Below are positions 7,823 through 11,522 of a stretch of DNA of 64,000 bases, piece after piece. Source of the DNA: Candidatus Micrarchaeia archaeon (lineage in GTDB: Archaea > Micrarchaeota > Micrarchaeia > Burarchaeales > JACRGF01); the NCBI GenBank assembly GCA_038890815.1, contig JAWAFC010000001.1:68456-132455 (forward strand), given 5' to 3'. Numbering within the stretch: position 1 is the stretch's first letter; each line of letters opens with the position of its first letter. The notes beneath the pieces were generated by a model that was not told the origin of the DNA, ran no database searches, and worked only from the letters and a program-made list of their open reading frames with translations. A program made the translations under genes and the position numbers.

Positions 7823-8899
7823 ATGAAAAAAGTGCTTGTGGCCACGCTTGCCTTACTCCTGCTGTCGGGATGCGTGGCGCTTGGAGGAAAGCCGGTCACC
7901 ACGCTGTGGGGCGGCTCGCCGTGGGACTGGAGAGCTGAGGCGCTCATGCTCGCGCTCATCATGCTGATGCTGACAGCACTTGCCTATGCGATTGGCTTCG
8001 GCTTCAACATCGCCCACCTAAAGACGTGGGGCAAGAACGAGCTGTACCAGGCGATAGTCAGCATCGTCATTGTGGCTGCGCTCATCGGGCTGCTGACGAG
8101 CCTGGATGCCGCACTGGCGGCCGATGTGGGCTGCACGGGCACGGGATGCCACATCCTGCTGGCCCGCAACTACACGATTGCGATGTATTCCAATCTGAGG
8201 GAGATGAACAAACTCATCCTGCGCACGAACTCATGGCTGCTCATGCTGGCATCAATGTCCGTCGGGTGGGAGGGGATGGTCGCGCCATGGCTTAACTTCA
8301 TGTTCACCCCGCTCGCAGGTTTTCATGTCATCACCGACAGCCTCAACACCACGTTTGACCTCATCACCAAGGTCATGATAGTCATGAAGGCCGTTGAGGT
8401 CTTTTTCGACCTCACGATGTCCTCGCTGTATCCGACGCTGCTGGCGCTCGGCATTGTGCTGCGCTCGTTCTTCATGACGCGGAGGCTTGGGGGGCTACTC
8501 ATGGCGGTGGCCATAGGCATCTATTTCGTGCTGCCCATAGTCTATCTGCTGGCTCACGCCGTGGTTGGCGCCACCACCGCCAAAACATATGTGCTCATCA
8601 TTGACCCGAGCGCGCTGGAGAATGCATATACGAGCGCGCAGGGCACGGGCGCAGACAAGAGTCTTGTGCCGCACAAGCCCGAAAGCTTCGGGCTATGGGA
8701 TGCCCTCACCGGGACGCTTACCGATGAAGGGAGCTGGCTCATCGGTGATGAGGGCGTGCTGGAGAAAACGGCAAAAATCCTCATCTATGCCACTTTCGTG
8801 CCGTTTGTGAGCCTCATCACCACGATATCTTTTGTAAAAATACTCTCACAGAATCTCGGAGGCGATATTGAGATCGCCGGGCTAACGAGGTTGATATGA
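7823..8899 (+). CDS. Paralog 3 of the novel membrane protein family (358 aa). It has a lipoprotein-type signal peptide with an LLSGC lipobox.
   Basis: The N-terminus is MKKVLVATLALLLLSGCVALGG. Shared motifs are TWGKNELYQ, FFDLTMSSLYPTLLALGIVLRSFFMTRRLGGLLMAVAIGIYFVLPIVYLLA and the tail NLGGDIEIAGLTRLI. An alternative GTG start at 7811 would overlap the paralog 2 stop. Confidence 0.75.
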   Translation: MKKVLVATLALLLLSGCVALGGKPVTTLWGGSPWDWRAEALMLALIMLMLTALAYAIGFGFNIAHLKTWGKNELYQAIVSIVIVAALIGLLTSLDAALAADVGCTGTGCHILLARNYTIAMYSNLREMNKLILRTNSWLLMLASMSVGWEGMVAPWLNFMFTPLAGFHVITDSLNTTFDLITKVMIVMKAVEVFFDLTMSSLYPTLLALGIVLRSFFMTRRLGGLLMAVAIGIYFVLPIVYLLAHAVVGATTAKTYVLIIDPSALENAYTSAQGTGADKSLVPHKPESFGLWDALTGTLTDEGSWLIGDEGVLEKTAKILIYATFVPFVSLITTISFVKILSQNLGGDIEIAGLTRLI

Positions 8900-10098
8900 T
8901 GAGGGCGTGGGCGCTCGTGCTGGTCGGGCTCATACTCCTGTCTGGCTGCCTCGGCACGATACAGCGGTGCACGGGCGCGGGGGCGCCGCCAGGGCCAGGG
9001 GGATGCTGTCCTGGCACCTATCTGTCCGAGACGGGGATGTGCGAGACGAGAGTGAACTGGTATGGTCCGGTGATGCTCGCCCTGCTGCTCTCGTCTTTTG
9101 TTGCCGCCGTGATGTTCATGCTGGCGTTCGGCTTCGGCATGCCCTCCCTGTTAGTATGGGCAAAGAACGAACTGTACCAGCTCGCCGCCACTGCGATCTT
9201 CGTTGGCGCGATGTTCATCATAATCAGCTTCATCGATCAGGTTTTCGTCCCGCTGTTTTACCTGCCGTGGTACCTGGAGAGGGTTTCGGCGGGCCTCACG
9301 GTATCCGCCAACGATGCATTCCAGGTTGCCGAGCAATTCCTTGACATCGCACAAACGATAATCACAGCATATTACATCATATTCAACGGCATGAATGTAG
9401 CATTTGGGGTGCTCGCCTCCTCGACCGTCTCCATCGCGCCCATGCGCGTGGGCATAACCATACAGCCGGGCGTGGCGCTGCGCCCAATCCTGGATGCGCT
9501 CGCCATAGTGCTCAATGGACAGGGACTCGCGCTGGCCAGCATCATAGGGCAGCAACTCTTTCTCAAGTTTGTCCGTGACACCATGATGCCGATCTTTCTC
9601 CCCGTGGGGATTCTTCTGCGGACGTTTCCATTCACGCGCAGCGCGGGCGGCGCGCTCATCGCCATCGCTGTGGGATTCTATGTGGTGTGGCCGCTCACAT
9701 ACATCATGTCATTCGAATTTCTGAAGGCGCACATGGCGAGGGTGTATTGTTTCGGCGTGCCGCTTCCGCCGAGCTGCACCGCACTCGATGTGGCTGAGAG
9801 AATCATCGAGCCGATGCGCGAGCATCTGATGAGCGCTGTGTCCGCGCTGCTCAATCCGAGCGGTTTTGCCTATCTTGGGGAGGTGTTCTTTCTGCTTTTC
9901 CTGCTGCCAACGGGGAAGCTGATCCCTGCGCTCACCGTCATTCTCATCATACTCATCAGCTATTTTGTTTACATGACAGTCGTGCTGGGATTTGTCATGC
10001 CCGCCCTCCAGCTGCTCATCACCTTCACGGCCATAAGAGGGCTGGCGAATATACTTGGAGCGGATATCAATCTGCAAGCGCTCTCCAAGATAGTGTGA
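8896..10098 (+). CDS. Paralog 4 of the novel membrane protein family (400 aa). It has a lipobox signal peptide and an N-terminal CC/Cys cluster.
   Basis: The N-terminus is MMRAWALVLVGLILLSGC followed by CLGTIQRCTGAGAPPGPGGCCPGTYLSETGMCE. Shared motifs are VWAKNELYQ, PIFLPVGILLRTFPFTRSAGGALIAIAVGFYVVWPLTYIM and the tail ILGADINLQALSKIV. The ATGA start overlaps the upstream stop. Confidence 0.75.
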   Translation: MMRAWALVLVGLILLSGCLGTIQRCTGAGAPPGPGGCCPGTYLSETGMCETRVNWYGPVMLALLLSSFVAAVMFMLAFGFGMPSLLVWAKNELYQLAATAIFVGAMFIIISFIDQVFVPLFYLPWYLERVSAGLTVSANDAFQVAEQFLDIAQTIITAYYIIFNGMNVAFGVLASSTVSIAPMRVGITIQPGVALRPILDALAIVLNGQGLALASIIGQQLFLKFVRDTMMPIFLPVGILLRTFPFTRSAGGALIAIAVGFYVVWPLTYIMSFEFLKAHMARVYCFGVPLPPSCTALDVAERIIEPMREHLMSAVSALLNPSGFAYLGEVFFLLFLLPTGKLIPALTVILIILISYFVYMTVVLGFVMPALQLLITFTAIRGLANILGADINLQALSKIV

Positions 10099-11522
10099 TG
10101 AGCATGAACAGGTTGCTTGTTGTGCTGGGCACATTCGCGCTGGCGGGGTGCGTGAGCATATCCCCGCCCATTTCGACGAGCGCCGCGTACGCGTGCGGCA
10201 TAACGGCGAGCTGGGGCTCGTGGGCCGGCTTGGCCGCGCTGGGCGCGCTGCTCTCTTTCTTCATCCTTGTGCTCGTTTACATGGGAGCAACTGTGCTTGG
10301 CATCGCGGGCGCGGCGACGTGGGCGAAGAACGAGTTTTACCAGACGGCGGCGAGCCTCGTCATTGTGGCCAACCTCGTGCTGGCCGTGGGTGTGTTGTGC
10401 AGCCCGAGCTTTCCGGCACTTTTCGGACTCGACCCGAAACTCATCGGCATGCCGGCCGGCACAACGCCGAACCTGTATGACTATGCCTTTGAGTATGTGA
10501 GATGGCTGAATGAAAAAATAATAATTGGGTGGCTGCACGCTTTTGTGCTGCAGTGGCGCACGGCAATCGCCACGAGCTATGCGAGCGGCATGCAGCCGGG
10601 CGGGTATGGCGTCAGCGTGCAGCCCATGGCCGGGCTCTCGGCGCTTGAGAGCGGGCTCAACCTCATGCTGCAGTCCTTCACAATCGCCTGGATAACCAAC
10701 CTCGTGCAGGCCGAGATACTCAAGTTCATCCTCGTCTCCATGTTCAACATCGTGCTGCCCGTGGGTGTTGTGCTGAGGTGCTTCAGTTTTACGCGCGCAT
10801 TCGGTGGCGCGCTCATGGGCATTGCCGTAGCACTGTTCGTGTTCTATCCCATCCTGCTCGGAATAAACATGCTGGCGATTGCCGATGCCACCAATGCCGT
10901 GGTGGACGCCCTCTCCTCCCAGTACAGGTGCACGCCCGGCTCGACGACCGAATGCTGCGGCGGCCTGACATGCAATGCGGATGGGAGTTGCCCCCCATGT
11001 ATTTTTGCGGGAGAAGCCGACAACCCGAGCAAATGTTGCTCAGGGAAGTTTGATCCTAATCAGCCGGGCAGATGCCTTGAGCTCGGCTATCCTGGTGATG
11101 CATGCAGCGCGGACAGCGGGTGTTTCTCGGGAAAATGCGAGGGCGGCGTGTGCACGACGTGCAAAGTGTCCCAGTCCGCCTGGTCGGTGAGCGGAGAGGA
11201 TGCGCTGGGGATGCTCACTATTATTGGGAATGTGATATGGGTGGGCCTTGTGGCCTACTTCGCGCCCGTGCTGACATCGATGATGGCGATAGGCAGGCTG
11301 GGTGGAATGGCTCTGCTTAAGGGCGCGCTGGGCGGCACGTTGCTGGCGCTGCTGGGCGGCACATACGCGATCTTTGGGCTCATTAGGGTAGCCTCCTATA
11401 TCCTCATTGGGGCCATTCTGCTGCCGGCTTTCAATTTCATCTTGCTGGTAACCATCGCGCGCGACCTCTCGCGGTTCTTCGGAGAGGAGGTGGATGTGTC
11501 CAACCTCACGAGGATGATATGA
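10095..11522 (+). CDS. Paralog 5 of the novel membrane protein family (475 aa). It has a lipobox signal peptide and an ~85-aa Cys-rich extracellular insert.
   Basis: The N-terminus is MMSMNRLLVVLGTFALAGC. Shared motifs are TWAKNEFYQ, FNIVLPVGVVLRCFSFTRAFGGALMGIAVALFVFYPILLG and the tail FFGEEVDVSNLTRMI. The insert reads CTPGSTTECCGGLTCNADGSCPPC...CCSGKFDPNQPGRCLELGYPGDACSADSGCFSGKCEGGVCTTC. The ATGA start overlaps the upstream stop. Confidence 0.75.
   Translation: MMSMNRLLVVLGTFALAGCVSISPPISTSAAYACGITASWGSWAGLAALGALLSFFILVLVYMGATVLGIAGAATWAKNEFYQTAASLVIVANLVLAVGVLCSPSFPALFGLDPKLIGMPAGTTPNLYDYAFEYVRWLNEKIIIGWLHAFVLQWRTAIATSYASGMQPGGYGVSVQPMAGLSALESGLNLMLQSFTIAWITNLVQAEILKFILVSMFNIVLPVGVVLRCFSFTRAFGGALMGIAVALFVFYPILLGINMLAIADATNAVVDALSSQYRCTPGSTTECCGGLTCNADGSCPPCIFAGEADNPSKCCSGKFDPNQPGRCLELGYPGDACSADSGCFSGKCEGGVCTTCKVSQSAWSVSGEDALGMLTIIGNVIWVGLVAYFAPVLTSMMAIGRLGGMALLKGALGGTLLALLGGTYAIFGLIRVASYILIGAILLPAFNFILLVTIARDLSRFFGEEVDVSNLTRMI

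Follow-up and report, generated by a model that had tools for sequence, protein, structure and literature searches.

A conserved six-gene array of paralogous membrane proteins in Micrarchaeota joins a shared five-helix core to exchangeable N-termini and exposed modules and may form a conjugation-type apparatus

In a 64,000-nucleotide stretch of a Candidatus Micrarchaeia genome (contig JAWAFC010000001.1, positions 68,456 to 132,455; henceforth the window, by which we mean the whole stretch), six consecutive genes (P1 to P6, encoding subunits 1 to 6) specify membrane proteins of a large family found in Micrarchaeota. We found that family members are encoded in tandem arrays of six, that each array position has its own orthologs in other lineages, and that a common core of five transmembrane (TM) segments is combined with different N-termini and different extracellular modules. 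Relatives of the array lie beside genes for VirB2-like pilins and VirB4-like ATPases, or have pilin modules fused to their second subunit. We put at about one half the probability that the six proteins form the channel or platform of a divergent conjugation-type apparatus (a type IV secretion system, T4SS, resembling Ced/Ted) that is conserved across the Micrarchaeota.

The six products are true paralogs, with pairwise identities of 26-29% and 14 invariant columns in their alignment. Three motifs mark them: WAKNE directly after TM1, LRxFxFTRxxGG between TM3 and TM4, and LGGxxxxxxLxRLI at the C-terminus. A first-pass annotation of the window, made from the letters alone, had described a conserved membrane core with diversified exposed modules in six paralogs, and the shared motifs, the five-helix core, and the variable inserts bear this out. 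The genes are tightly packed, with 4-nt overlaps at junctions 3/4, 4/5, and 5/6 and gaps of 2 nt (1/2) and 4 nt (2/3). The start of P5 may be the ATG at 10098 or 10104 instead of the GTG at 10095; its close ortholog in the related locus L001 starts at the equivalent of 10104. The P1 protein is identical to NCBI entry QXG98_00435, a 'hypothetical protein' of a Candidatus Micrarchaeia metagenome-assembled genome (MAG).

An exhaustive HMMER profile search returned 3021 representatives at a threshold of E<=1e-3, of which 2352 passed E<=1e-10, family size being counted as representatives of clusters at 50% identity. Members are 250-1683 aa long, and all named ones are 'hypothetical' or 'uncharacterised' proteins from Micrarchaeota, Micrarchaeia, Parvarchaeota, or Ca. 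Gugararchaeum. Searches of Pfam and NCBIfam with the six paralogs gave sub-threshold noise only (LPAM_1, TMEM37, and TcpD at E=0.013), a Pfam scan of 121 members revealed no recurrent family, and a PDB sequence search with the family gave no match. We found no description of the family or of a six-gene array in the searchable literature on secretion, pili, and paralogs in DPANN archaea and Micrarchaeota.

Each locus that we retrieved via protein look-ups holds exactly six tandem members. A scan of one genome per species of the Genome Taxonomy Database added 80 more loci, nearly all from Micrarchaeota; it used a position-3 alignment and is thereby biased to arrays with a recognisable position-3 motif. 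Of the 55 arrays not interrupted by a contig end, 53 consist of six members, and the remaining two of five and seven. Position within the array is conserved as well: between lineages that are 20-35% identical, best hits fall at the same position in 269 of 300 cases (90%), for position 6 this holds for all 50 cross-locus best hits, and every array has its ortholog of position 1. The C-terminal cytoplasmic tails are likewise specific to their position and conserved across lineages in the eight loci that we compared. Position 1 ends in LGGExxLxGMxKLV, position 3 in LGGDIEIAGLT[RH]LI (nearly invariant in all lineages), and position 5 in GEE[VI]D[VI][ST]xLTR[ML]I, while the tail at position 6 carries a position-specific two-residue insertion (LGANVAEIAQGLVRLI in subunit 6). 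Position 2 has no tail in any of the eight loci, and subunit 2 is the only tail-less subunit in the window.

From the fixed number and order of the genes, the position-specific tails, and the overlapping reading frames, we infer that the array encodes six non-equivalent subunits, which would assemble into an obligate six-subunit hetero-oligomer of fixed stoichiometry, and not a set of interchangeable variants. If the genes were instead variant copies of a single subunit, kept as a repertoire for surface variation and not co-assembling, the exposed modules would be expected to differ among copies and lineages, as indeed they do. However, positional orthology and position-specific tails persist between lineages of such low identity, copy number is fixed at six, and the genes abut or overlap as one operon-like unit, which together make a variant repertoire highly improbable. 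At least five MAGs carry two six-gene arrays on separate contigs (L010/L026, L011/L058, L016/L028, L019/L055, and L015/L023), so that the array has been duplicated as a whole in some lineages.

The N-termini of P3, P4, and P5 read MKKVLVATLALLLLSGC, MMRAWALVLVGLILLSGC, and MMSMNRLLVVLGTFALAGC, respectively, exactly the starts that the first-pass annotation had quoted as lipoprotein signal peptides. We scored a lipobox where a positive n-region and a hydrophobic h-region lead to [LVI][ASTVI][GAS]C no more than about 35 residues from the start. All three proteins have this organization with the canonical sequence L-[SA]-G-C, namely KK...LLSGC in P3 (Cys17, 7871-7873), R...LLSGC in P4 (Cys18, 8947-8949), and R...ALAGC in P5 (Cys19, 10149-10151). 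P3 also scored 18.3 bits against Pfam LPAM_1, below the cut-off of 20. The three lipoboxes are kept in the orthologous loci L001 and L002, which are 88% and 66% identical to the window array. As the first-pass annotation had also noted, P1, P2, and P6 lack a signal peptide; short tails of 33, 18, and 32 residues, with 1, 0, and 0 Lys or Arg, lead into their TM1.

Proteins with a lipobox and the lipidation enzyme AliA are reportedly common in DPANN archaea (PMC12462473). Subunits 3-5 have the same n-region, h-region, and L-[SA]-G-C as lipobox (Sec/SPII-type) lipoproteins of the AliA/AliB pathway (PMC12462473), but after the predicted cleavage they would remain integral membrane proteins with five TM segments, in which the predicted lipid would tether an N-terminal ectopeptide and not serve as the sole anchor. 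Two other proteins of the window begin with a lipobox N-terminus: a 559-aa protein with '...FLFLAGC' and a weak Dicty_CTDC match (26263-27942, + strand) and a DUF3352 protein with MGKRALALALLLAGC (18106-19026, - strand). Lipoprotein-type export thus appears to be used more widely in this organism.

The mixture of N-terminal types characterizes the family as a whole. Of 111 representatives that could be classified, 35 carry a lipobox, 21 a signal peptide of another kind, and 55 no signal peptide, and each of the three states occurs at all six positions across different lineages. A heuristic census of the N-termini in 73 arrays showed some signal peptide at position 4 in 62 of the 73, mostly none at positions 1 and 6, and a concentration of lipoboxes at positions 3-5. 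Arrays with at least three lipobox subunits are rare (6 of 73), and three of these six are the window array and its two close relatives. Inspection by eye found a lipobox at position 5 in five of six independent lineages. The signal peptide is most likely a changeable means of moving the subunit N-terminus across the membrane.

How the subunits sit in the membrane was judged from 121 family members mapped on the helix boundaries of subunit 3, as supported by its AlphaFold2 (AF2) model, a heuristic procedure. Lys and Arg make up 17%, 22%, and 11% of residues in loop 1, loop 3-4, and the C-tail, compared with 4.7% in the N-terminal region, 4.4% in loop 2-3, and 5.9% in loop 4-5. Cys per 100 residues number 0.27, 1.8, and 0.08 in the former three and 3.5, 1.3, and 1.8 in the latter. 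Where no signal peptide is present, the tail is short, with a median of 19 aa, and acidic (1.9% Lys and Arg versus 7.6% Asp and Glu), and a Trp just ahead of TM1 is conserved to at least 90% in proteins with and without a signal peptide alike. Based on the positive-inside pattern, the Cys distribution, the short acidic tails, and the conserved Trp, all six subunits most likely share one five-TM topology with the N-terminus outside, the C-terminus inside (N-out/C-in), and the disulfides outside. Since the N-terminal statistics fit one shared topology, export is most likely for the tails of subunits 1, 2, and 6 as well.

The AF2 model of subunit 3, the minimal version of the fold, agrees with this arrangement (predicted local distance difference test score, pLDDT, 83; predicted template modelling score, pTM, 0.77). 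In it, TM2, a 35-residue helix, and a long TM3 helix form a helical stalk on the outer face, and in the frame of this model the variable modules attach at the N-terminus and in the TM4-TM5 loop. The first-pass annotation had given P1, P2, and P6 a cytoplasmic N-terminal stretch, which the charge bias, the Cys distribution, and the conserved Trp speak against. A family with two topologies, in which paralogs 3, 4, and 5 have an external N-terminus, paralogs 1, 2, and 6 a cytoplasmic one, and the cores are inverted or differ in their number of TM segments, would explain why the latter three have no signal peptide. It would not explain why charge and Cys statistics fit a single topology family-wide, why signal-less tails are short and acidic and keep the Trp, or why all three N-terminal states are found at each orthologous position; moreover, inversion of the core would leave the RxFxFTR and WAKNE turns exposed and bring the paired Cys into the cell. 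We therefore give two topologies very little credence.

Onto this scaffold are set extracellular modules that differ from subunit to subunit. P4 carries a four-Cys module between its lipobox Cys and TM1 (nt 8968-9042), in which C25, C37, C38, and C49 are the CC-containing cluster that the first-pass annotation had pointed out. The Cys-rich insert of about 85 aa that it had placed in P5 at 10921-11175 was also recovered, with 14 Cys in a repeated C..CC..C..C spacing (boundaries in Table 1). For P1 it had proposed a large C-terminal ectodomain with N-glycosylation sequons and paired Cys: the large module, the sequons, and the Cys are there, but the module sits between TM4 and TM5 and not at the C-terminus. 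This insert is beta-rich, with 10 Cys, one extra hydrophobic segment, and four of the five N-x-S/T sequons of the protein. In the AF2 model of subunit 1 the core reaches a pLDDT above 90 and the insert 36-60, and at that quality the insert gave no significant Foldseek match; it had no Pfam match either.

The first-pass annotation had allowed that the Cys-rich inserts might be lineage-specific junk, which their absence from orthologs would have implied. They are present in both L001 and L002 and keep all their Cys: Cys columns are retained in both loci in 18 of 18, 7 of 7 (P4), and 10 of 10 (P1 insert) cases, and every Cys of the subunit 5 insert is conserved across three orthologs. Between the window and L002, P5 is 56% identical in the insert and 74% in the core. 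The modules are not junk, because orthologs keep every Cys even as divergence in the intervening sequence outpaces that of the core, and this pattern marks the P1, P4, and P5 inserts as predicted disulfide-type exposed modules maintained under selection. Elsewhere in the window, a 394-aa protein (19911-21095, - strand) has an N-terminal TM segment, about eleven N-x-S/T sequons, and no Pfam match, and is probably a heavily glycosylated surface protein.

The link to conjugation comes from related arrays. In five loci (L003, L008, L017, L021, and L029) the array is followed by two paralogous membrane proteins of about 270 aa and then by an ATPase with DUF87 (HerA central domain), AAA_10, and TraG-P-loop matches, which mark it as VirB4/HerA-like. 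One to three open reading frames (ORFs) of about 100 aa lie ahead of the array in L003, L017, L021, and L029, the last lying in the complete genome of Ca. Fermentimicrarchaeum limneticum; in L008 the downstream genes are kept, and no small pilin-like ORF was found upstream of the array. The small ORFs of L003 match Pfam T4SS_pilin along the full length of that model (best E=1e-5, 25.9 bits, with a cut-off of 26.6). The paired membrane proteins (265-275 aa, approximately; L003 14767-16396, L008 14484-16112, L029 14162-15812) have no Pfam match and, where the context is of this type, always separate the six genes from the gene for the VirB4/HerA-like ATPase; they could be further parts of the apparatus.

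A second link is by fusion. In 22 other arrays the subunit at position 2 reaches 520-580 aa through the fusion of two to three tandem pilin modules ahead of its own TM1, with phmmer E-values from 7e-13 to 1e-5 among 9991 ORFs (Table 1). The N-terminal region of the family itself also resembles a pilin: the first ~100 positions of the family hidden Markov model (HMM), which cover the signal peptide, TM1, the basic turn, and TM2, align to whole L003 pilin ORFs at 17.8, 10.3, and 9.3 bits, scores reached by 0, 5, and 1 of 1000 hydropathy-preserving block shuffles, and the other multi-TM proteins of the L003 locus score below zero. This points to a weak but specific homology between the N-terminal hairpin of the family and VirB2-like pilins. 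With VirB2-like pilins, a VirB4-like ATPase, and pilin fusions, the context of these relatives fits a guess of the first-pass annotation, which had listed conjugation pore proteins among the possible identities of the six proteins.

Three very large ORFs without a Pfam match adjoin arrays of these kinds (L004 15481-21096, 1871 aa; L004 1-2514, more than 1508 aa; L003 19756-21476, more than 790 aa). They recall the giant surface proteins encoded near VirB4-like ATPases in nanohaloarchaea (PMC10266531). In L008, a PIN-domain and T2SSE ATPase resembling PINA is encoded a few kb upstream of the array (2958-4532, - strand); it is 24% identical to the ATPase that follows the window array and is probably unrelated to the array.

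In the window, the array is directly followed by a gene for a FlaI/PilB/VirB11-type secretion ATPase (Table 1). The protein matches Pfam T2SSE at E=5.7e-36, and its NCBIfam matches (FlaI at 227 bits, TadA, VirB11, and TrbB) are all below the cut-offs. A T2SSE-family ATPase has the same place in L001, L002, and L016, and most other arrays lack it. In L016 it shares 65% identity with that of the window, while the L016 position-3 subunit is only 34% identical to its window counterpart. The ATPase is probably the motor of the complex in the window lineage. About 25 loci have arrays of the window type, linked to a leucyl-tRNA synthetase gene and often to FtsZ genes.

By analogy, the array would work like VirB6, CedA, or TedA and need not be a VirB6, because the context, the pilin fusions, and the pilin-like hairpin point to such a role and a place in the VirB6 family was not supported. 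The six paralogs have no match to TrbL (PF04610), nor do the 121 members at E<=1, and an hhalign comparison of the family with a 35-sequence alignment built from pTiC58 VirB6 gave a probability of 0.4%, the VirB6 profile being narrow (members at least 36% identical). Like VirB6/TrbL proteins, the family cores are polytopic and about 300 aa long. Jakubowski et al. are said to have found in 2004 that VirB6 of Agrobacterium has its N-terminus in the periplasm and its C-terminus in the cytoplasm, with five TM segments and a large loop that faces outward; hydropathy, charge, Cys statistics, and the AF2 model, all read heuristically, give a polytopic, N-out, C-in protein with a large outward loop for the family as well. 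The arrays of L003, L017, L021, and L029 are encoded between VirB2-like pilins and a VirB4-like ATPase. A VirB6-type channel is encoded by one gene, and in R388 VirB6 is a homo-pentamer; here there are six non-equivalent paralogs, and the window array lacks VirB2 and VirB4 genes in its vicinity, its partner being a FlaI-type ATPase. A further likeness is the N-terminal hairpin that resembles the cognate pilin, as reported for VirB6/VirB2 (PMC9905601).

Beltran et al. described homology between the N-terminus of the channel and the pilin both for CedA/CedA1 and for VirB6/VirB2 (PMC9905601). Ced and Ted are archaeal, chromosomal minimal T4SS derivatives for DNA import that combine a pilin with a polytopic channel and an ATPase of the VirB4-like kind (PMC9905601). 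To judge by that description, the array resembles these systems (CedA/TedA, CedA1/TedC, CedB/TedB) in being archaeal and chromosomal, in having a channel N-terminus that is similar, if weakly, to the L003 pilins, and in having components too divergent to be linked by BLAST. It differs in that six ordered paralogs are found here in Micrarchaeota, whereas the Ced and Ted systems of Sulfolobales, Desulfurococcales, and Thermoproteales have only one gene for the channel, and in the lipobox or Sec signal peptides and Cys-rich surface modules of the family. Compared with VirB2-type pilins (T4SS_pilin PF18895, TrbC/VirB2), the family hairpin aligns end to end with the small ORFs beside arrays, but the similarity is weak (9-18 bits) and the hairpin is only the first ~100 residues of proteins of 300-560 aa with three more TM helices. 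An eight-gene 'type IV pili system' of Mia14, MIA14_0170-0177 (PMC5498576), could not be matched to the array, though it might be the same array with its ATPase.

Taken as a conjugation-type apparatus, the array could be built as follows. Each subunit would start with an external N-terminus and a hairpin of TM1, the WAKNE turn, and TM2 that resembles a whole VirB2-type pilin, followed by a long helical extracellular stalk (loop 2-3) that leads to TM3. The RxFxFTRxxGG turn would join TM3 to TM4 in the cytoplasm, and a loop of variable content would join TM4 to TM5 outside the cell; in all subunits but one the chain would end in the conserved, position-specific cytoplasmic tail. The lipoprotein-type signal peptide of subunits 3, 4, and 5 would leave a lipid-anchored Cys with a short and sometimes disulfide-rich ectodomain, and the short acidic tails of subunits 1, 2, and 6 would cross the membrane unaided. 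Equal amounts of the six products, which are probable because the genes overlap by 4 nt or nearly abut, would give a fixed hetero-oligomer, possibly a ring. The adjacent FlaI/VirB11-type ATPase, presumably hexameric, would dock on the cytoplasmic tails and drive the complex, and more generally the apparatus would be driven by whichever hexameric ATPase a lineage encodes beside its array. The outer face would display lineage-specific modules, lipid-tethered, Cys-rich, or glycosylated, which could make contact with a host or another partner cell.

Several observations weigh against this proposal. Homology of the core to VirB6/TrbL was not detected by Pfam, hhalign, or PDB sequence search; a Foldseek search with the P3 model (pLDDT 83) gave no hit, the best E-value of 0.19 being to designed helical bundles, and the top PDB hit of the P1 model, TrwI/VirB6 (7o3v_F), is not significant (E=1.7, probability 0.11, TM-score 0.14/0.24). 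The family's own hairpin is only weakly pilin-like, and the strong pilin matches are to extra fused modules and not to the core. Window-type arrays showed no pilin or VirB4-like gene within 10-50 kb by tblastn and phmmer, and most arrays linked to leucyl-tRNA synthetase have no ATPase nearby at all. Some MAGs hold two arrays, so different arrays may do different jobs, and co-assembly and function are read entirely from gene order and association. For the window array the link to conjugation is indirect because its type has no pilin neighbours: tblastn, phmmer, and Pfam found no VirB4 ATPase or VirB2 pilin gene with the array in the window, tblastn and phmmer found no window homolog of the L003 VirB4-like ATPase, pilins, or two ~270-aa membrane proteins, a pilin HMM had no match at E<=0.01 in the six proteins or the other window ORFs, and Pfam scans of 20 further window ORFs returned housekeeping genes only.

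A bolder version of the proposal, which we regard as tentative though possible, is that the array belongs to an undescribed envelope machine specific to Micrarchaeota. Its obligate hetero-hexamer of pilin-derived hairpins, with five tailed subunits and one tail-less subunit that accepts pilins, might form a ring that templates or replaces a VirB2-like filament. Such a machine would use interchangeable hexameric ATPases (VirB4/HerA-like or FlaI-like) and might serve these reduced symbionts as a conduit for exchanging DNA or metabolites with their hosts, with the lipid-anchored, disulfide-rich modules as determinants of host specificity.

Two other explanations dispense with conjugation. The six proteins might belong to a complex that has nothing to do with secretion or pili, serving envelope biogenesis, lipid or solute transport, S-layer anchoring, or division, with neighbours that are coincidental. 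Many arrays indeed have no ATPase or pilin neighbour, the window-type context is one of housekeeping genes kept in many genomes (the leucyl-tRNA synthetase gene, often near two FtsZ genes), and the core has no detected homology to any T4SS component. Yet pilins are linked to the array twice and independently, by neighbourhood in four lineages and by fusion in 22 arrays, secretion-type ATPases of two different families directly follow it in the same orientation, and the N-terminal hairpin is itself pilin-like; we consider an unrelated complex unlikely on these grounds.

Doubtful to a greater degree is a replacement platform for a type IV pilus, in which the six proteins stand in for PilC/TadC/FlaJ, work with a FlaI/PilB-type ATPase, and assemble pilins encoded elsewhere. 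As with PilC/TadC/FlaJ (T2SSF), a polytopic membrane protein is here encoded directly upstream of a T2SSE-family ATPase with no other platform gene nearby: Pfam scans of the ORFs found no T2SSF, PilC, TadC, or FlaJ gene in the 64-kb window, and the adjacent ATPase scores best against the FlaI and TadA models. The architecture is nonetheless the opposite, T2SSF proteins having large cytoplasmic helical domains and the present family having large outside parts and only short cytoplasmic turns. VirB11-family ATPases of Thermoproteales pair with unrelated proteins of 4-5 TM segments that have been proposed to be diverged TadC (Makarova et al. 2016, PMC4858521), which would offer a precedent. But at E<=1 the 121 members gave no match to T2SSF and no consistent match to any other Pfam family; a T2SSE ATPase is missing from the surroundings of most arrays, and several are accompanied instead by a VirB4/HerA-like ATPase and by two-helix pilins that resemble VirB2; and the pilin modules found fused to subunit 2 belong to the conjugative class and are not type IV pilins with class III signals. 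On balance the array is best read as a T4SS-like system with a hetero-oligomeric, pilin-derived channel, with a real chance that it is something more distinct.

Table 1. Coordinates of the array, its modules, and associated features (window numbering unless a locus is named)
Feature	Position	Strand	Description
Divergent intergenic region	5135-5191	+	57 nt, leucyl-tRNA synthetase gene to subunit 1
P1 / subunit 1	5192-6877	+	561 aa; no signal peptide; five-TM core; large TM4-TM5 insert
Subunit 1 extracellular insert	5915-6757	+	Residues 242-522 (~280 aa), between TM4 and TM5
P2 / subunit 2	6880-7818	+	312 aa; no signal peptide
P3 / subunit 3	7823-8899	+	358 aa; lipobox signal peptide; minimal version of the fold
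P4 / subunit 4	8896-10098	+	400 aa; lipobox signal peptide
P5 / subunit 5	10095-11522	+	475 aa counted from GTG 10095; lipobox signal peptide
Subunit 5 Cys-rich insert	10929-11162	+	Residues 279-356, 14 Cys, predicted extracellular TM4-TM5 loop
P6 / subunit 6	11519-12547	+	342 aa; no signal peptide
FlaI/PilB/VirB11-type secretion ATPase	12564-13877	+	437 aa; 16 nt after subunit 6
Fused position-2 genes	L004 8214-9959		Also L046, L059, L061, L065, L069, L070
Fused position-2 genes, continued			L073-L078, L080, L081, L083, L086

On its 5' side the array is bordered by the divergent leucyl-tRNA synthetase gene on the - strand. The spacer between the two contains a TATA-like box, TTTAAA, at about 5158-5163, some 30 nt 5' of the subunit 1 ATG, which may be the promoter of the array. 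On the 3' side, the T2SSE-family ATPase gene is followed by an Fe-S assembly gene and two FtsZ genes. The window has three genes of the FtsZ/tubulin family in all: two in tandem just downstream of the array (14304-15380 and 15440-16504, both +) and a third further away (42481-43938, -) whose product has an N-terminal extension of about 155 aa ahead of the tubulin domain. Further along are a RuBisCO large-subunit gene (28643-29935, +) and a gene for a Glycos_transf_3/PYNP_C protein that resembles AMP or nucleoside phosphorylases (44553-46202, +), a combination that suggests the archaeal nucleotide-salvage pathway and not carbon fixation. The genes for a PolX-family polymerase with pol-beta domains and a PHP domain (55660-57381, -) and for an ATP-dependent DNA ligase (57378-59087, -) overlap by 4 nt and are likely a repair operon.

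The means by which DPANN archaea adhere to their hosts and trade material with them remain an open question, and hardly any machinery dedicated to these tasks is known in Micrarchaeota. A large family without a Pfam or NCBIfam model, linked to conjugative-type pilins and to secretion ATPases, offers a concrete candidate. The N-termini hold a lesson about topology as well, in that orthologous polytopic proteins appear to switch freely among a lipobox signal peptide, an ordinary signal peptide, and unassisted export of the tail. If the six subunits do form one hetero-oligomeric channel, this would be a new architecture for T4SS-like systems, which normally have one VirB6-type protein; it would place a third archaeal branch next to Ced and Ted and would support the mutual derivation of channel subunits and pilins. 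Cultivated Micrarchaeota exist (A_DKE, Mia14, and ARM-1), and these predictions are therefore directly testable.

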